Positions 10,340 through 58,382 of a DNA stretch of 64,000 nucleotides are shown here, piece by piece. Within the stretch, counting starts at the first letter, position 1; each line of letters starts with the position of its first letter. Below the pieces are notes generated by a model. That model ran no database searches. It was not told the DNA's origin and saw only the letters and a program-made list of their open reading frames with translations. The translations under genes were made by a program, and so were the position numbers. Location of the stretch: the sequence record MN850605.1. One strand, 5' to 3'. Source of the DNA: Escherichia phage fjerdesal.

Positions 10340-10415
10340 TGGAGAATCCGAAGGGACTCGAACCCTTATAAACCTGTTTTGCAGACAGGCACATATCCAT
10401 TTCTGTCACGGATTC
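10340..10415 (-). tRNA. tRNA-Cys (anticodon GCA)
   Basis: Perfect 7-bp acceptor stem, T-arm AAGGG/TTCGAGT/CCCTT, anticodon loop CTGCAAA, U73, encoded CCA. Confidence 0.75.
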
Positions 10416-10419
10416 AAAT

Positions 10420-10512
10420 TGGAGGAAGATACCAGACTTGAACTGGTACACCGATTTCTCAGCTACTGGCAGTTTAGCAAACTGCTCCCTTACCTTTTAG
10501 GGTTAATCTTCC
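10420..10512 (-). tRNA. tRNA-Ser (anticodon GCT), type II
   Basis: Acceptor GGAAGAT/ATCTTCC, anticodon stem GCAGT/ACTGC loop TTGCTAA, long variable arm, T-arm ACCAG/TTCAAGT/CTGGT. Confidence 0.7.
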
Positions 10513-10513
10513 A

Positions 10514-11248
10514 TTATTTCTGTAATGCGCTCTTCATTTCTGGTGTTGCAATAGTGTCAATCACACCAGTTTTACAAGCATCGTCAAACCAGTCTGGTAA
10601 GATACCTGCTAAGAACCCATTGATATTCGTTTTAAGGTACTCTGCAATAAGGGCAGCTTCTTCTTCAATCATCTGCACAACTTCATCTGCATAAGCTGTA
10701 ATCTTTGAAATACCTTCATTAATCTTACTGACAGCTTGGTTAGCTAAATCAGAAACAGTATCAAGACCCTTATCAATAGCATCTTGTAAGTCACTTAACA
10801 CACCATTAACACTATCTAGTGTACTGTTCATCATGTCAATAGCTTTTTGACCATACTCTGTAGCAACACCCATGATACCACTGAATGGTTTACAACCAAC
10901 TTGTTCTCCTGCTGCACCCATAACATTGGAATACCCCTTTGCTACCTGCATACGTGATGAAAACTCATCAATAGATTTTTGACCGTAGTCTGTCAGAGTT
11001 TTAGTAGTTGCTGTAGTGCTTGTAAGGCTTGTTGTAAAGCTGTTTAGAAGGACTGTTGTAAGTCCAGCAGCAACAAGTTTCTCCTTCATTGTAGGGTCTG
11101 TTACAGAACTAATAGAGCTTACAAGTGATGTAGAAGCAGCTACGGTTCCACCGAGAACTGCTGCACCAGTAATAAGCGGGTTAGAGAACCCTTTACCAGT
11201 TTTTAAGAGATTAAAAATCTCCTTACCTTGTTCTGTCATCTCTTTCAT
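10514..11248 (-). CDS. hypothetical protein (Ser/Thr-rich)
   Basis: ORF 10514..11311 in track; start trimmed to ATG at 11248 because upstream part overlaps tRNA-Phe; AGGTG SD. Confidence 0.5.
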   Translation of the reverse strand: MKEMTEQGKEIFNLLKTGKGFSNPLITGAAVLGGTVAASTSLVSSISSVTDPTMKEKLVAAGLTTVLLNSFTTSLTSTTATTKTLTDYGQKSIDEFSSRMQVAKGYSNVMGAAGEQVGCKPFSGIMGVATEYGQKAIDMMNSTLDSVNGVLSDLQDAIDKGLDTVSDLANQAVSKINEGISKITAYADEVVQMIEEEAALIAEYLKTNINGFLAGILPDWFDDACKTGVIDTIATPEMKSALQK

Positions 11249-11266
11249 TAAGCACCTTTGAAATTG

Positions 11267-11343
11267 GTAGTCCAGTGGGATTTGAACCCTCTTCTCATGT
11301 TTTTCAGACACGCGCTTTAACCATATAAGCTACTTGGACTATA
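11267..11343 (-). tRNA. tRNA-Phe (anticodon GAA)
   Basis: T-loop TTCAAAT, anticodon stem CGTGT/ACATG loop CTGAAAA, D-stem GCTT/AAGC; 5' region slightly noncanonical. Confidence 0.6.
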
Positions 11344-11348
11344 AATTG

Positions 11349-11424
11349 GGGTGACCTACGGGATTTGAACCCGTATAGACCATGTTCACAGCATGGGTCA
11401 TTACCGTTTATGATAAGGCCACAT
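11349..11424 (-). tRNA. tRNA-His (anticodon GTG)
   Basis: Acceptor GTGGCCT/AGGTCAC, anticodon stem CCATG/CATGG loop CTGTGAA, C73, encoded CCA. Confidence 0.7.
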
Positions 11425-11455
11425 TTAAGGACTCTCGCAAGAATCCTTAGAAGTG

Positions 11456-11531
11456 GCAGCGGCATAAGGATTTGAACCTTAATAGGACAGCTTCAGAGGC
11501 TGCTGCATTGCCAGTTATGCTATACCGCTAA
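11456..11531 (-). tRNA. tRNA-Gln (anticodon CTG)
   Basis: D-stem GCAT/ATGC, anticodon stem GCAGC/GCTGT loop CTCTGAA, T-arm TAAGG/TTCAAAT/CCTTA, G73. Confidence 0.7.
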
Positions 11532-11536
11532 ATTTG

Positions 11537-11615
11537 GTACTCCATATCGGATTCGAACCGATACATAACACAGATTTTAAGTCTGGCCTCTCTGCCAATT
11601 GGAGTAATGGAGCAT
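11537..11615 (-). tRNA. tRNA with anticodon TAA (Leu-type anticodon, short variable arm)
   Basis: Acceptor GCTCCAT/ATGGAGT, T-arm ATCGG/TTCGAAT/CCGAT, anticodon loop CTTAAAA, A73; only 76 nt plus CCA. Confidence 0.6.
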
Positions 11616-11617
11616 TG

Positions 11618-11693
11618 GCGGGGGATGTTGGAATTGAACCAACTTCTTCGATTTCAAAGACCGAGGTTTTAACCTTGTAAACTAATCCCCTTT
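11618..11693 (-). tRNA. tRNA-Gln (anticodon TTG)
   Basis: T-arm GTTGG/TTCAATT/CCAAC, anticodon stem TCGGT/ATCGA loop CTTTGAA, G73, A1-C72 mismatch. Confidence 0.6.
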
Positions 11694-11699
11694 AAATCT

Positions 11700-12257
11700 T
11701 TACTTTCTCAGTGGATGAATAAAGAATGCCAACATAACTCTTTCCCTTGAGAATGCTCTTTCTTCTGGGACAACACTTTTTAGTTTCCATCCAATATAAA
11801 TTCTCCAGTAAAATTGTTTACCAAAGATTTTAATTGATGGGATAAAAGCGAATAATCCCCAAGCATTACTGTTCCACATTAGGAGATAACCTGTCTGATT
11901 ATCTTCGGGGTCAGAACTTACGTTGATATTACCTTTCCACTTAGTAACATCTCTTACATCTCTTCCTAATACATGGTAAGAGAAGTTATAAGCTTTGTTT
12001 CTCCAGAGCCATCCGACTCTTTGCATGTAGACACCTAGTTTACCAATCCATCTAATATTAGCCCATCTTTTAACGTGACCTTCATCACCATCAATTGGGT
12101 TGTCATATGTCTCCATCCATCTGAACCCGAAAGGTAAGTGTCCTTTCTTCTCACTGTAGAATGGAACTACAAAAGGTGCTAAGATAACTGCTAAGATTGC
12201 TGCAAATGGCTCTAACAAAGCTAAGAAAATCCATGAAGCATACTTCAAATATCTCAT
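11700..12257 (-). CDS. hypothetical membrane protein embedded in tRNA cluster
   Basis: 185-aa ORF with hydrophobic N-terminal segments. Confidence 0.55.
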   Translation of the reverse strand: MRYLKYASWIFLALLEPFAAILAVILAPFVVPFYSEKKGHLPFGFRWMETYDNPIDGDEGHVKRWANIRWIGKLGVYMQRVGWLWRNKAYNFSYHVLGRDVRDVTKWKGNINVSSDPEDNQTGYLLMWNSNAWGLFAFIPSIKIFGKQFYWRIYIGWKLKSVVPEERAFSRERVMLAFFIHPLRK

Positions 12258-12276
12258 CTAAATAGCCTCTTTAAAT

Positions 12277-12352
12277 TGGCGCAGGATAAGGGATTCGAAC
12301 CCCTATTAACAGCTTCGTAGACTGTTGCTCTATCCATTTGAACTAATCCTGC
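12277..12352 (-). tRNA. tRNA-Arg (anticodon ACG)
   Basis: Perfect acceptor GCAGGAT/ATCCTGC, anticodon stem ACAGT/GCTGT loop CTACGAA, encoded CCA. Confidence 0.75.
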
Positions 12353-12357
12353 AAAAT

Positions 12358-12435
12358 TGGTGTTCCAAGACGGATTCGAACCGTCACTAATACAAGGTTT
12401 GAGCTTGCATCCTCTGCCAATTGGGATACTGGAAC
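12358..12435 (-). tRNA. tRNA with anticodon CAA (Leu-type anticodon, short variable arm)
   Basis: Acceptor GTTCCAG/TTGGAAC, T-arm GACGG/TTCGAAT/CCGTC, anticodon stem GCAAG/CTTGT loop CTCAAAC, A73. Confidence 0.6.
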
Positions 12436-12436
12436 A

Positions 12437-12511
12437 TGGTACTCACTAAAGGACTTGAACCTTTTTCTTCATCTTGTAAGGGTGATGTTTTACCATATAA
12501 ACTAAGCGAGT
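12437..12511 (-). tRNA. tRNA-Val (anticodon TAC)
   Basis: D-stem GTTT/AAAC, T-arm AAAGG/TTCAAGT/CCTTT, anticodon loop CTTACAA, A73. Confidence 0.7.
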
Positions 12512-12518
12512 ATGAAAG

Positions 12519-12607
12519 AGGTCTGAAGTTGTGCCGCTAACTCAACTTCGTGGAATTTGTTACGGTCTTCAGTTGACTCAAAGCGGTCTTTCACTTGACC
12601 TCTGAAT
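12519..12607 (-). ncRNA. structured non-tRNA spacer element (GAGGTC...GACCTC closing stem, internal GAAGACCG motifs)
   Basis: 89-bp gap in tRNA array; terminal inverted repeat and internal hairpin, no canonical T-loop. Confidence 0.3.
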
Positions 12608-12683
12608 TGGTGCTCCCACAAGGACTCGAACCCTGATAAGTTGCTTACAAGGCAACCATAATAACCAATTATACGATAGGAGC
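12608..12683 (-). tRNA. tRNA-Thr (anticodon TGT)
   Basis: Anticodon stem GTTGC/GCAAC loop CTTGTAA, T-arm CAGGG/TTCGAGT/CCTTG, encoded CCA. Confidence 0.75.
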
Positions 12684-12690
12684 ATTAATT

Positions 12691-12765
12691 TGGAGCATCC
12701 AGAGGGAATCGAACCCTCAACCTCAGTTTGGAAGACTGTAATTTTCCCGTTTAAACTATGGATGC
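12691..12765 (-). tRNA. tRNA-Gly (anticodon TCC)
   Basis: Acceptor GCATCCA/TGGATGC, T-arm GAGGG/TTCGATT/CCCTC, loop CTTCCAA, U73. Confidence 0.75.
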
Positions 12766-12771
12766 ACTAAT

Positions 12772-12846
12772 TGGTGGAGTCACTGAGAATTGAACTCAGT
12801 TCCCAAGTTTGCAAAACTCGAATTTTAACCATATAAACTATGACCC
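12772..12846 (-). tRNA. tRNA-Ala (anticodon TGC)
   Basis: Acceptor with G3-U70 wobble (Ala identity), anticodon loop TTTGCAA, T-arm CTGAG/TTCAATT/CTCAG. Confidence 0.75.
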
Positions 12847-12854
12847 CCATTGTT

Positions 12855-12930
12855 TGGTACAGGTGGAGGGAATTGAACCCATCGTCTTACTGATTAAGAG
12901 TCAGCCGCATAACCATTTTGCTACACCTGC
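12855..12930 (-). tRNA. tRNA-Lys (anticodon CTT)
   Basis: Acceptor GCAGGTG/CACCTGT, anticodon stem GCTGA/TCAGT loop CTCTTAA, T-loop TTCAATT. Confidence 0.65.
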
Positions 12931-12937
12931 ATTAATT

Positions 12938-13014
12938 TGGTACACCTAGAGAGATTCGAACTCACACTGAGCAGATTCTAAGTCTGCTGCCTCTACCAGT
13001 TGGGCTATAGGTGC
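12938..13014 (-). tRNA. tRNA with anticodon TAG (Leu-type anticodon, short variable arm)
   Basis: Canonical D-arm GCC/AACTGGTAGA/GGC, perfect anticodon stem GCAGA/TCTGC loop CTTAGAA, T-loop TTCGAAT, A73. Confidence 0.65.
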
Positions 13015-13020
13015 ATTAAA

Positions 13021-13101
13021 TCTTTTTAGAGAACTTCTAAGAACCTGAGCAACAAGGTTCCACAACAAGCGACTAATAACCTTAGAAGCCCTCTAAAAAG
13101 A
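13021..13101. repeat. long inverted repeat (about 20-bp arms, about 40-nt loop) in tRNA cluster
   Basis: tctttttagagaacttctaag ... cttagaagccctctaaaaaga are reverse complements. Confidence 0.5.
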
Positions 13102-13268
13102 CCTAAATAGGTCTTTGCATAGTCTTGTTTAATCCGGTGACTAGAACCTTTGGAGAGCTTGATATTATCTCTTCTCCGTGACACCTACTAGGTGCTTTGA
13201 CAGTGTACGACAATACACGAGGGATAAACCGACAATGCGAACAAGCATGGACGGAGTAAATCTTATTA

Positions 13269-13358
13269 GGCGGTAAGTAAAGGAGTCGAACCCTCACCGT
13301 ATCTCTACAGTGGCAACAGTTTTCAAGACTGTTTGGCTGCCATTAGCCGCTACCTACC
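13269..13358 (-). tRNA. tRNA-Ser (anticodon TGA), type II
   Basis: Acceptor GGTAGGT/ACTTACC, anticodon stem ACAGT/ACTGT loop CTTGAAA, long variable arm, G73. Confidence 0.7.
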
Positions 13359-13371
13359 CCTAATAAGACTT

Positions 13372-13454
13372 TGGCATGGGACGGAGGAGTTGAACCCCTT
13401 TGAAACGGTTTTGGAGGCCGTTGCTCATGCCTTAGAGTCTTAACATCGTCCCAT
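13372..13454 (-). tRNA. tRNA-like gene, possibly tRNA-Trp (anticodon CCA) with atypical D-arm
   Basis: Perfect acceptor ATGGGAC/GTCCCAT, G73, encoded CCA, T-loop TTCAACT; anticodon stem AACGG/CCGTT enclosing 9-nt loop CCTCCAAAA. Confidence 0.45.
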
Positions 13455-13596
13455 ATTATAATTCGAAGCTTACCCTGTTATCTCAACACTGTCAAGCTTC
13501 TTCTCAGATTATTTACATGTTCTGGAAAACATGAGATACAGACCACCTCCCTACAGGAAGACCCGCTAAGGCCGTCTAAGTAATCTGCTAACTATT

Positions 13597-13673
13597 TGGT
13601 ACACCCTACAGGATTCGAACCTGTAACTAACGATTTAGAAGACCGTTGCTCTATCCAATTGAACTAAGGGTGC
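13597..13673 (-). tRNA. tRNA-Arg (anticodon TCT)
   Basis: D-arm GTTC/AATTGGATA/GAGC, anticodon stem ACGGT/ATCGT loop CTTCTAA, T-arm ACAGG/TTCGAAT/CCTGT. Confidence 0.75.
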
Positions 13674-13875
13674 ATTATCTTTAAAGACTCTCTTAGAAAG
13701 CCCTTAAAGATGCCCACCTTATTAATCATACCGTGGGCGAGTACGCCAAATTCTTTGATGAGGGATTGGAAGACCTCACTGGTGTTTAGCCTATCAAGCT
13801 ACTGCCAGAAAAACATTGTCGTTTGCATTTATTTTAAATTTGCAAAATAGACGCTACGCAACGAAAACTAAGGTT

Positions 13876-13904
13876 ACTATAAAGTAGTCACATCTCAATG
13901 TCAA
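13876..13904 (-). promoter_or_regulatory. sigma70-type promoter inside tRNA cluster (TTGACA-N17-TATAGT)
   Basis: Minus-strand TTGACATTGAGATGTGACTACTTTATAGT; reads toward tRNA-Arg(TCT) sub-cluster. Confidence 0.55.
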
Positions 13905-13919
13905 CAACTTTATTGAAAT

Positions 13920-13995
13920 TGGTACTGGTAGGTGGAATCGAACCACCGATGTTCCCTTATCAGGGGAGTGTTATAACCTTCTTAACTATACCAGC
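13920..13995 (-). tRNA. tRNA-Ile (anticodon GAT)
   Basis: D-arm GTTA/AGAAGGTTA/TAAC, T-arm GGTGG/TTCGATT/CCACC, loop CTGATAA. Confidence 0.7.
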
Positions 13996-13996
13996 T

Positions 13997-14073
13997 TGGA
14001 GGTTCAGATGGGAATCGAACCCACATTCATAGGGCTTATGAGACCCTTGCATTACCTTATCTGCGACTGAACC
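13997..14073 (-). tRNA. tRNA-Met (anticodon CAT)
   Basis: Acceptor GGTTCAG/CTGAACC, anticodon stem AGGGT/GCCCT loop CTCATAA. Confidence 0.7.
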
Positions 14074-14077
14074 ATAT

Positions 14078-14153
14078 TGGTAGAAGTGGAGGGATTCGAA
14101 CCCATCGCCTGTCAGATTAAAAGTCTGCCGCATCACCATTCTGCTACACTTCC
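14078..14153 (-). tRNA. tRNA-Lys (anticodon TTT)
   Basis: Acceptor GGAAGTG/CACTTCT, loop CTTTTAA, T-loop TTCGAAT. Confidence 0.65.
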
Positions 14154-14163
14154 ATTAAATTAT

Positions 14164-14297
14164 CTTTGTAGATAAGCTACCCAGACTTGCTTAAGGTCTG
14201 TAGCGATGTGCCTTTTTTGGGTTTAAATCTAGAATTTACCCATTCACCCTTTGTGGTCGCATACTCACAAGTAAGCTTAATAACTTATCTACAAAGG
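14164..14297. repeat. 13-bp perfect inverted repeat (ctttgtagataag / cttatctacaaag) separated by about 108 bp
   Basis: Exact reverse-complement arms at 14164-14176 and 14285-14297. Confidence 0.5.
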
Positions 14298-14299
14298 TA

Positions 14300-14440
14300 A
14301 TTACCAGACCGTTGTTTATCATCTTAAGTGCTACCATTACACCAACTCGACATCTGCCGAGTGAAGGAATCGAACCTTCGCCTTTTCTTTACCGGAGAAA
14401 TAGATTGTTTAAGTTTTGCTGTAAACGGCCTTCTGTAAAT
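14300..14440 (-). ncRNA. candidate Y-RNA-like element containing a circularly permuted tRNA-like module
   Basis: Minus strand order: T-arm GAAGG/TTCGATT/CCTTC (14363-14379), closed acceptor-like hairpin ACTCGGC-AGAT-GTCGAGT (14345-14362), D-arm-like GTG/TAATGGTAG/CAC (14328-14343); flanked by AGGCCGTT / AACGGTCT complementary segments; no anticodon arm. Confidence 0.35.
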
Positions 14441-14586
14441 TTGTTGAGCCAGACCAAGTTTTAAATTTTCAAAATTAAATTGGCTTGAAAATATCATACG
14501 TTCTTGCTGAATTTGGTCTTCTGCTCCTTTAAAGAATACTCGTAAGAACTCTTTAAGGGAGGGGCTAAATAGCCCTCTCAAAATTG

Positions 14587-14661
14587 GCGGCTACGATGAG
14601 ACTTGAACTCACATCATCTCCCGTGACAGGGGAGTATTTTCTCCAGTTAAACTACATAGCC
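14587..14661 (-). tRNA. tRNA-Asp (anticodon GTC)
   Basis: Acceptor GGCTATG/CGTAGCC, perfect anticodon stem CTCCC/GGGAG loop CTGTCAC, G73, encoded CCA. Confidence 0.75.
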
Positions 14662-14666
14662 TTTAT

Positions 14667-14754
14667 TGGTGTGCCGTGTAGGAGTCGAACCTACCGAGTC
14701 TCAATGACAAGGGATTTACAGTCCCCACCGCTACCATCTACGGGATAACGACAC
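14667..14754 (-). tRNA. tRNA-Tyr (anticodon GTA), type II
   Basis: T-arm GTAGG/TTCGACT/CCTAC, anticodon loop CTGTAAA, long variable arm. Confidence 0.7.
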
Positions 14755-14762
14755 ATTTAATT

Positions 14763-14839
14763 TGGCGGTTAGTCAGGGATTCGAACCCTGTGCCATTCGC
14801 TTAACAGGCGACCGCACATACCTTATGTGCTTCCTAACC
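14763..14839 (-). tRNA. tRNA-Asn (anticodon GTT)
   Basis: T-arm CAGGG/TTCGAAT/CCCTG, anticodon loop CTGTTAA, G73. Confidence 0.65.
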
Positions 14840-14917
14840 TTAATACATTGCCAGACCGTGTTTTTTCTTTTATCCGCAAAAAAGTATTTTGTTGCTGAAT
14901 ACGGTCTTCTGCAAAAT

Positions 14918-14994
14918 TGGAGGCGGGTGCAGGAGTCGAACCTGCCGATACCATGCTAATGAGACATGTGAGACGCCCTTTCTCTATACCCGCA
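14918..14994 (-). tRNA. tRNA with anticodon CAT (Met or lysidine-type Ile2)
   Basis: T-arm GCAGG/TTCGACT/CCTGC, anticodon stem CATGT/GCATG loop CTCATTA. Confidence 0.6.
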
Positions 14995-15085
14995 ATTCTT
15001 AATGACCAGACCAAATCTCTTCTTTGTCCGATTTACCTTCAGATGAATAAGATTAAGTTTGCTGTAATTGGTCTTCTGTCAAAAC

Positions 15086-15163
15086 TGGCGTTCCAGAAGG
15101 GATTTGAACCCTCAGATATCCACTTTGAAAGAGTGGTGACTATACCATTTTGTCTACTGGAAC
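15086..15163 (-). tRNA. tRNA-Glu (anticodon TTC)
   Basis: Acceptor GTTCCAG/CTGGAAC, perfect anticodon stem CCACT/AGTGG loop CTTTCAA, G73. Confidence 0.75.
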
Positions 15164-15170
15164 ATTAATT

Positions 15171-15247
15171 TGGTCTCTGTTGGAGGACTTGAACCTCCGG
15201 CCTTACCGCCCCAAACGGAACGCTCTACCAATCTGAGCTAAACAGAG
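15171..15247 (-). tRNA. tRNA-Pro (anticodon TGG)
   Basis: Perfect acceptor CTCTGTT/AACAGAG, D-arm GCTC/AGATTGGTA/GAGC, loop TTTGGGG, T-arm GGAGG/TTCAAGT/CCTCC. Confidence 0.75.
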
Positions 15248-15412: not shown

Positions 15413-16828
15413 TTACCAGATATAACGGTCAATCATTACTGCTTTGAGCATTACACTGATTGGGTCAAACTTCTCACCACCAAGCAGAGCTTTTAAAGTG
15501 GCTGGAGAGAACCCTGATACCATTGCTACACCGTTATCCTTAACAGATACTTCGCAAGTACCATTACGGTTTGCTAAGTACCAGAATACCAGTTGTGGCA
15601 TCTCATATCCAGCTTTTTTGTACTTACTCTGAATTGCTTCAAAGTTTGTACGACCGTTAGCTCCATCAACCTGATTGAACTCCATATCGGAGAAGATGAT
15701 AAGCTTACTTGGCATATCTTTCTGAGTCAAGTTGTTTCTTTTACCTGTTTCAAGAATGCGGTCAAAAGCTGCTTGTAAGTTAGTTGAGCCATATTCAACG
15801 TGTCGCATCACCTGACGATGACGGTTTCGTAAATCACCACTCAGTTCGATGAAGTGAGGGTTTGTTGAATAAACCATTAACTCATTCTTAAAGCAACCTG
15901 TATTGCGTTCTGCTACATACAAGGCAAGTGATACACCAATATCCAGAGCAGTAATGGAGCCAAAATTCACCCAAGACATTGAACTTGATACATCAGACAT
16001 ACACAAGATGTTTTCACCTTCTGCCATCCAGTTTGGTAGTGCTTTCCACTGCTCATTAGCAACATCTGCATTACCATACTTGACAGATTTAATCACATCG
16101 TATGGGTAAACAGCACCAGCGTTAATCTTAGTCTCACCTTTTGATAAGGACTCGATGTAAGCTTTGTAACGCTCTCCATCTTTACGGTTAAACAGTTTTT
16201 GGTAACGTGCAGCAGCAAGTGAAGGAATCTTACTGTAGTCAATCTTACCAAACTCATTAGCAGAGATTTTTTGCTCAACTGTATCAGATAGTGCAGACAA
16301 CAGTGTGCGGTACTCTTTCTCACTCAAGTTGGCAAACTTGCAGAAACGTTTTACAAACTGCTTATGACGTGGTTTGACTCGTGGTAACCACTTAGCCGCC
16401 AAACCTGCTGTTGCAGGGTCTAGTAATGCTGCTTCTAAATGTTTGAAGGCATCTGTCTCGAAACGAGTACCTACGAAGATTTTGAAGTCATCAAAACGAC
16501 CAAGTTCTGCAATCTTATCCATAATGCGAAGAACCTGCGTAGACTCTAAAACTTTGTCTTCAATTGCTTGAAGCAAAACAGTTCTGAAGGCTTTACGCTC
16601 ACCCATACCTTCTCGTACATCTCGCATATGAAGCAAAATACGAACTGCAACATCAACATCCTCACGCAAAGCTTTGTAGAACAGGTCTGGTAAGATTTCT
16701 ACGTTGCTACGGCTTGAACCAGCAGCTTTGTAAAAGTCTACAAGAGCAGACATTGATGAAGTATGGTTTACAGCACCATTTTCAGTTCGACCTGCATGAA
16801 GGTGCGCATGTTTAAATAATTCGCTCAT
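15413..16828 (-). CDS. vWA-domain protein, possibly Ro60/TROVE-like (Rsr-like)
   Basis: 471 aa; MIDAS motif DVSSS (CMSDVSSSMSW) and downstream beta-strand LIIFSDMEF typical of vWA; N-terminal ~280 aa helical region with loose resemblance to Ro60 motifs (LVDFYKAAGSS, YPYDVIKSVKYG); no adjacent AAA+ partner. Confidence 0.6.
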   Translation of the reverse strand: MSELFKHAHLHAGRTENGAVNHTSSMSALVDFYKAAGSSRSNVEILPDLFYKALREDVDVAVRILLHMRDVREGMGERKAFRTVLLQAIEDKVLESTQVLRIMDKIAELGRFDDFKIFVGTRFETDAFKHLEAALLDPATAGLAAKWLPRVKPRHKQFVKRFCKFANLSEKEYRTLLSALSDTVEQKISANEFGKIDYSKIPSLAAARYQKLFNRKDGERYKAYIESLSKGETKINAGAVYPYDVIKSVKYGNADVANEQWKALPNWMAEGENILCMSDVSSSMSWVNFGSITALDIGVSLALYVAERNTGCFKNELMVYSTNPHFIELSGDLRNRHRQVMRHVEYGSTNLQAAFDRILETGKRNNLTQKDMPSKLIIFSDMEFNQVDGANGRTNFEAIQSKYKKAGYEMPQLVFWYLANRNGTCEVSVKDNGVAMVSGFSPATLKALLGGEKFDPISVMLKAVMIDRYIW

Positions 16829-57524: not shown

Positions 57525-58382
57525 TTAGTCTTCTGTGTCGAAGTCTTCATCTTCTTCGTCATCTGGGTCTGGCAAATCTTCATCATCACCATCATCAGAA
57601 GTATTCGAAGATTTATGGTCTGTTGCGTCTTCTTCAGTGATTTCACCGTTATCTTCAACACCATCAAGACCAAGCATAGCCAGTTCATCTTCATCCAGTT
57701 CAGGTTCACCATTAGCACCGTTACCACCAGTGTAAGGTACAAGGGTATCAATGATAAACTGTTCCTGAATAGGTTTTGTCAGAACATTGTTCTCAAAAGT
57801 GTAGAAGTGAGTAGAAAGAATCACACTACCAAAAGAACCGTTACCAACTGCGATATCTGGATGAATTACATCATAGTTCTTGTCATCTTCATGTTTATCA
57901 GATGCTTGAGCTTTGATTTTCTTCATCGGCTGCTTAACAGCTACACGCTTACCATTTACTTCTTCAATCAGCATTACAGGGAATGACTGTTTAGCTGTCC
58001 ATACAGCACCATCTTTATAAGCTGCTGCACGACTTACTTTCAAGATGTAGTAGGTGTCTGCTTCAAAAGGTGGTTTACAACCAAACTTCTCTTCGAAGTC
58101 ATCTGCATCAACTGCTTCAGTAGTAACTTTGTCCCAGCCTTCTGGGTTTTTCTTAGACTTAGTAAACTCTTTAAACAGCTTGTTACCATCTTCTGCCAGA
58201 ATTGACACACTGTAGTTACAGTCTTTGCCTGGGAATTTCTTATCAATAGACTTACCTTTCCCCGGACGTGGTGAAGTATTCAGGTAATAAAACCAGACAT
58301 CTTTCAGCAGGTAACGCAGAGTTTGACGTTCAGTACCGTTGTATTTCTCTACCGGAGCTTTCATTTTAACAACTTTAGACAT
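57525..58382 (-). CDS. single-stranded DNA-binding protein with acidic C-terminal tail
   Basis: 285 aa ending DDGDDEDLPDPDDEEDEDFDTED; position next to primase-helicase. Confidence 0.55.
   Translation of the reverse strand: MSKVVKMKAPVEKYNGTERQTLRYLLKDVWFYYLNTSPRPGKGKSIDKKFPGKDCNYSVSILAEDGNKLFKEFTKSKKNPEGWDKVTTEAVDADDFEEKFGCKPPFEADTYYILKVSRAAAYKDGAVWTAKQSFPVMLIEEVNGKRVAVKQPMKKIKAQASDKHEDDKNYDVIHPDIAVGNGSFGSVILSTHFYTFENNVLTKPIQEQFIIDTLVPYTGGNGANGEPELDEDELAMLGLDGVEDNGEITEEDATDHKSSNTSDDGDDEDLPDPDDEEDEDFDTED

Follow-up and report, generated by a model that had tools for sequence, protein, structure and literature searches.

A tRNA-Trp-like gene of non-canonical architecture in Felix O1-like phages, probably a functional tryptophan tRNA

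In textbook tRNAs, two bases connect the acceptor stem to the D arm, and a functional tRNA in which 7 nt occupy this site is not known to us. Departures from the standard fold have been described elsewhere in the molecule. The (8/4) tRNAs of Mukai et al. 2017 have a 12-bp acceptor branch to which the acceptor stem contributes 8 bp and the T stem 4 bp; the group includes phage and bacterial tRNA-Ser, tRNA-His, and allo-tRNAs, some of them encoded in phage tRNA clusters (PMC5389517). An unpaired position 31/39 at the end of the anticodon stem was reported for 267 bacterial tRNA-Trp genes, which were counted but set aside from the study concerned, with no report of a remodelled connector/D region or an 8/4 branch (PMC13092985). 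Recognition by bacterial, including E. coli, TrpRS depends on the anticodon CCA, on G73 as the major determinant, and on A1:U72 and G5:C68 as minor elements (PMC12135181).

Here, we describe an element that resembles these systems in part. It lies on the minus strand of the window, the 64,000-nt stretch of Escherichia phage fjerdesal that was analysed, within a 26-gene tRNA cluster of a Felixounavirus (Felix O1-like phage). The minus strand of 13372-13454 reads AUGGGACGAUGUUAAGACUCUAAGGCAUGAGCAACGGCCUCCAAAACCGUUUCAAAGGGGUUCAACUCCUCCGUCCCAUGCCA, and its parts are as follows.

13372..13454, minus strand: whole tRNA-Trp-like gene, 83 nt as mature RNA with encoded CCA, scoring 111.8 bits with R1, a covariance model built on the element
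13447..13454, minus strand: 5' strand of the acceptor stem, RNA positions 1-8, AUGGGACG; G8 can lengthen the stem to 8 bp
13440..13446, minus strand: expanded connector AUGUUAA, RNA positions 9-15, within the invariant block GGACGAUGUUAAGA
13423..13439, minus strand: D hairpin, RNA positions 16-32, G(A)CUC-UAAGGCAU-GAGC, with a G18G19-like GG in the loop
13404..13422, minus strand: anticodon arm, RNA positions 33-51, 5-bp helix AACGG/CCGUU around C-CUCCAAA-A
13412..13414, minus strand: anticodon CCA, reading UGG (Trp); UCCAA is invariant in 17/17 variants
13399..13403, minus strand: variable region UCAAA, RNA positions 52-56, 5 nt, invariant
13384..13398, minus strand: T arm, RNA positions 57-71, 4-bp stem GGGG/CCUC and 7-nt loop UUCAACU
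13376..13383, minus strand: 3' strand of the acceptor stem, RNA positions 72-79, CGUCCCAU
13372..13375, minus strand: discriminator G73 followed by the encoded CCA-3', with GCCA identical in 17/17 variants
13876..13904, minus strand: candidate sigma-70-like promoter, TTGACA-17-TATAGT, a consensus match only (11/12), upstream of the element and in the same orientation

The candidate promoter might start a transcript with tRNA-Arg(tct), the element, and tRNA-Ser(tga); the stretch from the promoter to the element showed no terminator-like site. A tRNA relic is located near the element at 14362-14412. Directly upstream of the tRNA cluster lies a 471-aa open reading frame with DUF2828 and DUF7788 domains, assigned to PHROG 850 ('RNA-binding protein'). 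For its product, no PDB sequence match and no NCBIfam name were found, and the single-sequence AlphaFold model was poor (pLDDT 44).

Standard gene finders miss the element, most likely because its unusual shape hides it. ARAGORN in bacterial mode made no call at its default setting, with -ps lowered to 80%, or with introns allowed, and at 70% returned only overlapping Pyl and Gly calls, which were judged spurious. ARAGORN, one of the checks proposed in the sequence-only reading, calls the element in its metazoan-mitochondrial mode only, as Trp(cca). At gathering thresholds no Rfam family, including RF00005 (gathering score 29), matched the element; the best sub-threshold match within the tRNA clan was tRNA-Sec RF01852 with 23 bits against a cutoff of 47. 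No tRNA annotation of the element was present among the database matches listed, a 'hypothetical protein' is annotated across it in a few GenBank records, and literature searches retrieved no paper describing it. The energy of its single-sequence fold is unremarkable (z = -1.39).

Conservation in related phages, named as a further check in the same reading, was borne out, as the element is kept in 235 phage records. Structural comparison covered the 17 distinct variants of the element, which share one fold, and R1 scored homologs at 87-112 bits, while ordinary tRNAs reached no more than about 38 bits. Without a supplied structure, RNAalifold returned a cloverleaf with an 8th acceptor pair and with 3 bp in the D hairpin, 5 bp in the anticodon helix, and 4 bp in the T stem. 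In the model-fitted alignment, 98.9% of pair cells were paired, compensatory changes occurred at 9 of the 21 pairs, and all four helices covaried. The covariation score was 0.321 compared to 0.120 in shuffles, none of 500 reaching the observed value, and slid controls attained at most 0.046. The element is thus well beyond chance. Scans with an unconstrained anticodon found the scaffold with CCA only. Several database matches were discarded as chance or coding sequence lacking a tRNA-like fold, namely two from IMG/VR (L007, L009), five from metagenomes, and all nine from genomes (Rothia genes and MAG contigs). Another collection match (L058) resembles the end of a bacterial tmRNA.

These data bear on two readings in which the element would not be a working RNA gene. 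A decaying tRNA-Trp pseudogene, carrying a 7-nt insertion and persisting only through the conserved cluster, would agree with rejection by tRNA finders, with the relic nearby and the probable decayed homolog in Erwinia phage Coenus, and with weakened helices in a few variants: three loci have a U.U in the T stem, one has a G.G, and the acceptor stem of one metagenome contig contains two mismatches. Such decay is very improbable given 34 compensatory versus 4 unpaired cells out of 357. Moreover, the anticodon loop, the 7-nt insertion, and the T loop stay invariant between genera whose flanking spacers no longer align, and the element diverges to the same degree as functional tRNAs do, with 73-77% identity to its Yersinia, Pectobacterium, and metagenome versions, compared to 55-91% for true tRNA orthologs and 37-52% for the upstream spacer. 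A short protein-coding or DNA-level element with no RNA gene could be proposed from overlapping ORFs of 36 aa (plus strand) and 22 aa (minus strand) and from the few 'hypothetical protein' annotations, but the substitutions follow helix pairing and not a codon pattern, and the element is in phase with the tRNA array, lies 13 nt away from the next tRNA, and has a GCCA 3' end, which makes this proposal hardly credible.

The acceptor and T arm had been described as perfect from sequence inspection. This holds for the acceptor, where AUGGGAC/GUCCCAU forms a perfect 7-bp stem followed by G73 and the encoded CCA, but not for the T arm. The T stem comprises 4 bp including one G.U, rather than the canonical 5 bp, and a fifth pair, A49.C65, would be A.C in 17/17 variants. 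Its loop is canonical, fits the UUCRA (UUCRANY) motif, and is invariant across genera. Compensatory changes in the 17-variant alignment were found in the acceptor stem at 1-72 (AU/GU/GC) and 2-71 (UA/CG), and a T-stem G-C pair is replaced by U-A in two Mooglevirus (Moogle-type) variants. G8 and C65 can pair in 17/17 variants, which would give 8+4 instead of the usual 7+5 bp and keep 12 stacked pairs; both RNAalifold and ARAGORN -mt draw this form. Since G8-C65 and the connector are invariant, covariation is uninformative on the 8/4 reading and on tertiary contacts.

A further structural departure is the connector, which comprises 7 unpaired nucleotides after G8 compared to 2 nt (positions 8-9) in canonical tRNAs. 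It is identical in 17/17 variants, even in the divergent forms from Yersinia, Pectobacterium, and metagenomes, and in comparison with E. coli tRNA-Trp all 7 extra nucleotides map 5' of the D loop. The sequence-only reading had found no canonical D-arm. The D hairpin is indeed displaced, being 7 nt farther from the acceptor stem than normal, but it is not absent. It has a stem of 3-4 bp with one bulged A and an 8-nt loop with the invariant GG equivalent to G18G19, and its inner pairs occur as CUC/GAG, CAC/GUG, and CGU/ACG, with compensatory changes at two of three. For the connector, pairing was considered to the D loop through UUA/UAA, to the T loop through GUU/AAC, to the variable region, and to the 3' trailer through UAAGA/UCUUA; all of these were dropped because none is conserved in the Yersinia, Pectobacterium, SUSP2, and metagenome variants. 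An alternative D pairing, UGUU/AGCA, was rejected as it clashes with the covarying CWC/GWG pairs and the covarying A33-U51. The invariant connector may form part of a rebuilt tertiary core or serve as a recognition site.

In the anticodon arm, AACGG/CCGUU encloses CCUCCAAAA. Counted formally, the loop has 9 nt because 31/39 is C.A in most variants, C.C in two, and a standard pair in none of the 17. The 9-nt count given from the sequence is therefore literally correct, but the arm is colinear with that of E. coli tRNA-Trp: CUCCAAA, the 7-nt core, matches the E. coli loop at every position, and from the 3' strand of the D stem to the CCA end both molecules span 55 nt without an indel, with 38/55 identical residues (E. 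coli positions 22-76). Judged from this alignment, the apparent 9-nt loop is the 7-nt loop of E. coli tRNA-Trp plus an unpaired C31.A39, and not an insertion. A Watson-Crick pair of the 26:44 type brings the anticodon helix back to five pairs, at four of which compensatory changes occurred. The D stem runs straight into this 26:44-equivalent pair and the 4-bp anticodon stem, next to the unpaired 31/39, so that 10 layers are kept. U33, the anticodon CCA, and A37 are invariant, as is the entire loop across genera.

This geometry speaks against the suggestion, made with the loop count, of a frameshift-prone tRNA. The anticodon arm contains no inserted base, and thus the classic frameshift-suppressor mechanism does not apply; the class of enlarged-loop frameshift-suppressor tRNAs, defined by an extra nucleotide, was likewise rejected. 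A functional tRNA-Trp with altered decoding, that is, reading UGA by near-cognate pairing or frameshifting for programmed readthrough, deserves separate consideration. The D-arm changes A9C and G24A, or loss of a terminal anticodon-stem pair, let tRNA-Trp(CCA) read UGA (PMC13092985). In the element, the 8-26 region is rebuilt and 31/39 is unpaired, and the tRNA-Trp genes of related phages described below also deviate in the D arm or the anticodon stem. However, the readthrough variants tested in PMC13092985 were unpaired at the top of the stem (27:43) and not at its bottom. Stop codon usage among ORFs of at least 100 aa is ordinary (TAA 48, TGA 18, TAG 5), which led us to reject UGA recoding in the phage, and only one ORF has an in-frame extension of at least 40 codons after TGA. 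We consider altered decoding quite unlikely.

The identity elements and the genomic context point to tryptophan. The anticodon C34-C35-A36 and the discriminator G73 are invariant in 17/17 variants, and so is G5:C68, while position 1:72 is A:U in 10, G.U in 4, and G:C in 3 variants, with A1:U72 in the window copy. According to standard calls, the 26 tRNAs of the window cover 19 amino acids and none is for Trp; no tRNA was found in the remainder of the closest genome. Yersinia phage P778 (26 tRNAs) and Pectobacterium phage Arno18 (24 tRNAs) likewise cover the other 19 amino acids and contain the element, and a second Trp tRNA was found in none of the three phage lineages checked. The Trp assignment suggested in the sequence-only reading is strengthened, since the element is the only Trp candidate in these 19-amino-acid sets and is exchanged at the same locus for another tRNA-Trp in some relatives.

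This exchange was seen in 23 Felixounavirus, Suspvirus, and Shigella-phage records, in which the exact segment is swapped for a tRNA-Trp(cca) of 71 nt accompanied by an HNH endonuclease gene and the 83-nt element is absent. The 71-nt allele, found in wV8, phiSUSP1, and the O157 typing phages 8/11/12/15, has its locus and flanks in common with the element, as well as the anticodon CCA, G73-CCA, A1:U72, G5:C68, and a similar D-loop core, CUAWGGCA. Unlike the element, this allele combines 7/5 stems with a 1-nt connector; its anticodon stem of 5 bp closes a 7-nt loop, its D stem of 3 bp carries a loop of 5 nt, and its length is less by 12 nt. ARAGORN detects the allele in wV8 and Seyj1-1 and misses it in phiSUSP1, and GenBank labels it tRNA-Trp, tRNA-OTHER, or pseudo. 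Distribution is also complementary in Kolesnikvirus phages, which possess a canonical tRNA-Trp and no intact element. In the Erwinia phages phiEa21-4, Coenus, and Ea_Tu10, this tRNA-Trp shares with the element the 15-nt core CGGCCUCCAAAACCG, including the C31.A39 mismatch; position 31/39 is C.C in the Ea_Tu10 gene, just as it is in the element's Yersinia and Pectobacterium variants. In contrast to the element, the Kolesnikvirus tRNA-Trp folds as an ordinary 7/5 cloverleaf of 73-76 nt, in which the connector has 2 nt, and resides at a different position in the cluster, between tRNA-Gly and tRNA-Thr. A probable decayed homolog of the element was noted in Coenus.

We therefore favour the reading, to which we assign a probability of roughly 0.7, that the element is a phage tryptophan tRNA with the anticodon CCA and a non-canonical architecture, probably functional and representing a new structural variant. 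This reading draws on sequence, conservation, covariation, geometry, the complement of the tRNA set, and allele replacement. A functional non-canonical Trp tRNA had been listed as a possibility from the sequence, and the invariant CCA, U33, A37, and G73-CCA, the covarying helices, and the canonical lengths of the L arms favour it. We infer that the element would be co-transcribed with its neighbours in the minus-strand tRNA cluster, that RNase P would cut its 5' end, the 3' CCA being already encoded, and that host TrpRS would charge it via C34-C35-A36, G73, A1:U72, and G5:C68. On the ribosome it would then decode UGG, in which case the phage would be equipped with tRNAs for all 20 amino acids.

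The rival we took most seriously, while regarding it as unlikely, is a tRNA-Trp look-alike that the phage produces for a purpose other than decoding. A tRNA mimic had also been suggested from the sequence, and keeps some probability. The look-alike might act as a decoy for a host nuclease or other factor targeting tRNA-Trp, a ligand of the phage 'RNA-binding protein', or a TrpRS-binding sensor or regulator. A 10-nt single-stranded block, GAUGUUAAGA, is invariant even where helices have diverged, which suggests sequence-specific recognition beyond the needs of a tRNA; in addition, the core departs from every bacterial tRNA model, and the 471-aa 'RNA-binding protein' ORF adjoins the cluster upstream. 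Phage tRNAs are known to counter tRNA-targeting defences, according to references cited in PMC12916289. Yet a decoy would not need the 12-layer acceptor/T and 10-layer D/anticodon stacks, U33, A37, the elbow partners G18G19 and T loop, and the full set of TrpRS identity elements all at once, and a look-alike leaves unexplained why the element occurs precisely where a Trp tRNA is otherwise lacking and why a plain tRNA-Trp takes its place at the same locus. A further reading, which we regard as improbable, is that the rebuilt core (7-nt connector, 8/4 branch, unpaired 31/39) makes a tRNA still charged by host TrpRS behave unlike host tRNA-Trp: it might escape a host factor that targets tRNA-Trp, or read UGA in addition to UGG like the Hirsh suppressor or a tRNA-Trp with a 4-bp stem, with low-level programmed readthrough. 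The connector would then be the functional novelty, and the 71-nt allele with its HNH endonuclease a competing solution spreading by homing.

Felix O1-type phages are classic typing and biocontrol phages of Salmonella and E. coli. If the element is charged and used as a tRNA-Trp, these phages carry a 20-amino-acid rather than a 19-amino-acid tRNA set, and a missing annotation would be mended in roughly 235 database genomes with the element. It would also expose a blind spot of tRNAscan-type and ARAGORN-type finders in phage genomes, and provide a natural tRNA that works with a 7-nt connector and an 8/4 Trp acceptor branch. This would imply that RNase P, TrpRS, EF-Tu, and the ribosome accept more structural variation than is known, and it would offer a new scaffold for engineered or orthogonal tRNAs. 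The mutually exclusive Trp alleles, one of them accompanied by an HNH endonuclease, make the locus a tractable case of homing-driven tRNA gene replacement.

Among known RNA classes, the element does not match the tRNA-like domain of tmRNA and other mimics, as defined by the alanine identity pair G3.U70, the lack of an anticodon arm, and an appended mRNA-like or other domain: position 3:70 is G-C, the anticodon arm is complete, and the RNA is self-contained at 83 nt. The longer acceptor and 4-bp T stem of the tRNA-Sec model RF01852 fit the element better than the general tRNA model does, but its 5-nt variable region, D stem of 3-4 bp, score of 23 bits, and anticodon CCA instead of UCA exclude it from the tRNA-Sec-like and allo-tRNA types. 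With the (8/4) tRNAs the element may share the 12-bp acceptor branch of 8-bp acceptor and 4-bp T stem, but it possesses neither a long variable arm nor the Sec-like 6-bp D stem with tetraloop; PMC5389517 describes no Trp member, and an expanded acceptor-to-D connector is not among the features noted from it. Like the bacterial tRNA-Trp genes with unpaired 31:39 (PMC13092985), it combines a formal 9-nt loop with an intact CCA anticodon. Compared with E. coli trpT, it has the same CUCCAAA loop, G73, A1:U72, G5:C68, and D-stem 3' strand GAGC, and differs by a probable 8+4 instead of 7+5 pairs, C.A instead of U-A at 31/39, and a Watson-Crick pair at 26:44.

A tRNA-like gene is confirmed at 13372-13454 on the minus strand of the window. 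The phage belongs to Felixounavirus, and E. coli O157 typing phage 1 (KP869100) matches the surroundings of this 83-nt element at 99.9% identity. On the minus strand of the window at 10340-15247, ARAGORN detects 26 tRNA genes spanning 19 amino acids, with Trp the sole one absent. The element lies within this array, with tRNA-Arg(tct) 142 nt upstream and tRNA-Ser(tga) 13 nt downstream, and its RNA reads AUGGGACGAUGUUAAGACUCUAAGGCAUGAGCAACGGCCUCCAAAACCGUUUCAAAGGGGUUCAACUCCUCCGUCCCAUGCCA. The segment was found in 235 phage records; none of the matches listed annotates it as a tRNA, the entries being 'none' or 'hypothetical protein'. Conservation in related phages, which the sequence-only reading had proposed to check, is borne out by 17 distinct variants with a shared fold, collected from IMG/VR, metagenomes, and GenBank phages (Felixounavirus, Mooglevirus, Suspvirus, Yersinia phage P778, and Pectobacterium phage Arno18).

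Features of the element RNA (minus strand, RNA positions)
1-8 with 72-79: acceptor stem, 8 bp, G8-C in 17/17 variants
9-15: connector AUGUUAA, unpaired, invariant
16-32: D hairpin G(A)CUC-UAAGGCAU-GAGC, loop GG invariant, pair types CUC/GAG, CAC/GUG, and CGU/ACG
33-37 with 47-51: anticodon helix, 4/5 pairs covary
38-46: anticodon loop C-CUCCAAA-A
52-56: variable region UCAAA, invariant
57-60 with 68-71: T stem, 4 bp, one pair changing from G-C to U-A; T loop UUCAACU
80: G73; 81-83: CCA

The perfect 7-bp acceptor, G73, and encoded CCA of the sequence-only reading are correct, as is AACGG/CCGUU enclosing CCUCCAAAA. Its claim that a canonical D arm is absent needs revision: a D hairpin is present, its inner pairs vary together, its GG is invariant, and G16(A)CUC/GAGC resembles the canonical G10-C25 D stem. 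The T arm, described as perfect, has a canonical-type loop but a stem of 4 bp, the fifth pair of a 7/5 reading being A.C in every variant. ARAGORN, named earlier as a check, made no call in bacterial mode, even with relaxed thresholds and introns allowed; only its metazoan-mitochondrial mode reports the element, as an 83-nt Trp(cca) whose acceptor stem has 8 bp and whose T stem has 4 bp. At Rfam gathering thresholds the element is likewise uncalled, the top sub-threshold match being tRNA-Sec (23 bits versus a cutoff of 47).

RNAalifold, with no structure supplied, recovered an acceptor stem in which G8-C is paired, D and anticodon helices of 3 and 5 bp, the latter closing a 9-nt loop, and the 4-bp T stem, with double changes in 7 pairs. 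Under a covariance model of the fold, all homologs reach 87-112 bits, and no ordinary tRNA exceeds about 38 bits. In the model alignment of the 17 variants, which is fitted to the model and hence biased toward structure but agrees with the independent RNAalifold fold, 98.9% of 357 cells are paired and 9/21 pairs show compensatory changes (34 cells). The covariation score of 0.321 was reached by none of 500 shuffles (0.120 +/- 0.016) and fell to at most 0.046 with partners slid. A few variants carry single helix mismatches, and the block GGACGAUGUUAAGA, UCCAA, UCAAA, GGUUC, and GCCA are invariant. The window copy is 73-77% identical to the Yersinia, Pectobacterium, and metagenome copies, compared with 55-91% for bona fide tRNA orthologs and 37-52% for the upstream spacer. 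Covariation, together with tRNA-like divergence beside a poorly kept spacer, rules out a chance origin, makes a non-RNA element scarcely credible, and argues against a decaying pseudogene.

Since G8-C65 and the connector never vary, covariation is uninformative on tertiary contacts and on the 8/4 reading, that is, an 8-bp acceptor with a 4-bp T stem. The stacked layers add up to 8+4 = 12 in the acceptor/T arm and 4+5+1 = 10 in the D/anticodon arm, the same totals as the 7+5 and 4+1+5 of canonical tRNAs. The L thus has both arms at standard length, a requirement for a translating tRNA but not for a relic. With compensatory changes and tRNA-like divergence, these arm lengths leave a pseudogene very improbable. 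Candidate partners of the connector in the D and T loops, the variable region, and the trailer were rejected because these pairings are not conserved. The connector may rebuild the tertiary core, with U13-A14 in place of U8-A9; alternatively, it could be a recognition site.

From GAGC, the 3' strand of the D stem, to the CCA end, the element aligns with E. coli tRNA-Trp (sequence verified in 5426 genomes) over 55 nt each without indels (38/55 identical), so that its loop is the normal C32-U33-C34-C35-A36-A37-A38. The 7 nt by which it exceeds E. coli tRNA-Trp all fall after the 5' strand of the acceptor and before the D loop. Position 31/39 does not pair (C.A, or C.C in the forms from Yersinia and Pectobacterium phages), and the outermost covarying pair of the anticodon helix sits at 26:44. 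The 9-nt anticodon loop noticed earlier therefore stands formally, as in the RNAalifold fold, but not as an inserted base, and frameshift-type recoding loses its ground. UGA is read by tRNA-Trp whose D arm is altered (A9C, G24A) or whose top stem pair is not formed (PMC13092985), which makes altered decoding a possible minority reading; stop codon use in the window is ordinary (TAA 48, TGA 18, TAG 5), and we regard a recoding tRNA as improbable. Among the window's ORFs of 100 aa or more that end in TGA, a single one, at 57615-57986 on the plus strand, has a long extension in frame beyond the stop (72 codons).

Bacterial TrpRS contacts only the anticodon and acceptor arm, with anticodon CCA and G73 as major and A1:U72 and G5:C68 as minor determinants (PMC12135181); the window copy has all four. 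No tRNA was found in the other 24.5 kb of the closest genome. Yersinia phage P778 (26 tRNAs) and Pectobacterium phage Arno18 (24 tRNAs) likewise cover 19 amino acids, Trp excluded, and have the element in the equivalent position. The Kolesnikvirus phages of Erwinia belong to the same subfamily; they encode a canonical tRNA-Trp, flanked by tRNA-Gly and tRNA-Thr, and no intact element was found in them. Both RNAs share the core CGGCCUCCAAAACCG, including the C31.A39 mismatch, so the unpaired 31/39 is a trait of the Ounavirinae tRNA-Trp lineage rather than a peculiarity of the element. Anticodon-free scans found the scaffold with CCA only.

The Kolesnikvirus tRNA-Trp genes (L062 3286-3358, L066 2287-2362) have mismatches at both ends of the anticodon stem (27/43 U.C or U.U, 31/39 C.A or C.C), leaving only 3 Watson-Crick pairs, which bears on work on short-stem tRNA-Trp and UGA reading (PMC13092985). 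Erwinia phage Coenus also has an odd tRNA-like sequence directly after tRNA-Arg(tct) (L062 2667-2752, possibly from 2586), absent from Ea_Tu10. Its acceptor and T stems are arranged in the 8/4 manner, it has G73-CCA, and its connector, U-UGUGAAGCC, resembles GAUGUUAAGAC. Its loop, GCGACAAUA, has G at position 33 and no CCA anticodon, and 1:72 is A.C. A 19.9-bit match and synteny make this sequence a probable decayed homolog of the element, here in a lineage with canonical tRNA-Trp.

In 23 records (Salmonella phage Seyj1-1, phage wV8, phiSUSP1, and 20 others), a different gene, a tRNA-Trp(cca) of 71 nt, lies between the same flanks (upstream ...GGTAAGCTTCGAATTATAG..., downstream ...AGTCTTATTAGGGGTAGG...). 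An HNH endonuclease ORF comes after it, and the breakpoints coincide with the element borders.

Alternative allele and HNH genes at and beside the locus
L069 800-1310 (Seyj1-1), L070 and L071 2506-2995 (wV8, phiSUSP1): alternative allele
L067 619-1017 (tootiki), L068 758-1105 (CRP22): weak HNH-domain ORFs at the place of tRNA-Arg(tct)

In the 71-nt tRNA the acceptor and T stems are 7/5 and the anticodon stem is 5 bp; it carries loop CUCCAAA, G73-CCA, A1:U72, G5:C68, and a compact D arm (1-nt connector, 3-bp stem, 5-nt loop); its GenBank labels vary between tRNA-Trp, tRNA-OTHER, and pseudo. A covariance model search found no 83-nt element in these genomes, and together the 235 and 23 records come roughly to the number of Felix O1-like records matching the region. 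That the locus always has a CCA-anticodon tRNA-like gene, in either structure, is strong evidence for a tRNA-Trp job of the element; we consider a mimic of tRNA-Trp that does not decode unlikely. The alternative allele looks like a homing cassette carrying its own tRNA-Trp. In tootiki and CRP22, an HNH gene replaces the neighboring tRNA-Arg(tct) and the element is retained; these tRNA clusters appear to be hot spots of endonuclease gene insertion. Where tRNA-Arg(tct) is usual, Seyj1-1 has an 82-nt tRNA-like sequence (L069 574-655), uncalled by ARAGORN, with a UCU anticodon arm, G3.U70 acceptor, A73-CCA, and a long extra region; G3.U70 and A73-CCA are alanine- or tmRNA-like identity marks.

Other features around the cluster (window, minus strand)
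13455-13596: spacer between tRNA-Arg(tct) and the element, with block GUAGGGAGGUGGUCUGUAUCUC (recognizable as GGUAGGAGGUGAUCUGUAUCUCC in the divergent metagenome contig L046) and hairpin CAUGUU-UUCCAG-AACAUG
13826-13794, within 13700-13850: tmRNA-like tag frame, UUUAAAAUAAAU then GCA AAC GAC AAU GUU UUU CUG GCA GUA GCU UGA, encoding ANDNVFLAVA-stop
14362-14412: tRNA fragment, probably a relic, 22 bits on RF00005 (model positions 7-64), with a perfect T arm GAAGG-UUCGAUU-CCUUC, anticodon-like loop CCGGUAA (C at position 33), and no acceptor stem
15413-16828: 471-aa ORF adjoining the tRNA cluster upstream

The tag frame agrees with the Rfam tmRNA consensus near the resume codon; both tmRNA models score its block below gathering (29.2 bits versus a cutoff of 47), and no tRNA-like domain was identified in it. 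The unannotated block of about 125 nt occurs in 592 phage records of unrelated groups: Ounavirinae, Salmonella, Klebsiella, and Escherichia phages of about 157 kb, Klebsiella phages of 46-57 kb, and Salmonella FSL SP-058/076. The equivalent Coenus block, read from sequence, encodes ANDAQFLAVA-stop-stop, and a downstream hairpin appears to covary (UGAGG/CCUCA versus UAGGG/CCCUA). The 471-aa ORF matches DUF2828, DUF7788, and PHROG 850 'RNA-binding protein', a label also used in wV8, phiSUSP1, and P778; a sequence search of the PDB gave no match, and its single-sequence AlphaFold model is poor (pLDDT 44), with a helical N-terminal and an alpha/beta C-terminal part.

At 13904-13876, in the element's orientation, is a sigma-70-like site (TTGACA-17-TATAGT), and no terminator-like site was found between it and the element. 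The element would probably be transcribed together with tRNA-Arg(tct) and tRNA-Ser(tga), released by RNase P, trimmed at the 3' end to its encoded CCA, charged by host TrpRS, and read UGG; we found no literature on its expression or charging. Covariation, the Trp identity set, the tRNA complement, and the allele replacement support the functional noncanonical tRNA-Trp suggested earlier, and we put the probability that the element is an aberrant but functional tRNA-Trp at about 0.7.

Because it departs from the standard cloverleaf in its connector, T-stem length, and family-model score, we file the element, a tRNA-Trp by predicted function and identity set, as a new structural variant. tRNA-Trp(CCA) whose lowest anticodon-stem pair is not formed is encoded by 267 bacterial genes, which were counted though not studied (PMC13092985). 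Allo-tRNAs have a long variable arm and a Sec-like D stem, both of which the element lacks. 8/4 tRNAs have been described before, Ser and His types from phage clusters among them; that work describes no Trp member, and an expanded connector is not among the features noted in it (PMC5389517), whereas the element is of Trp type with a 7-nt connector in place of the canonical 2 nt.
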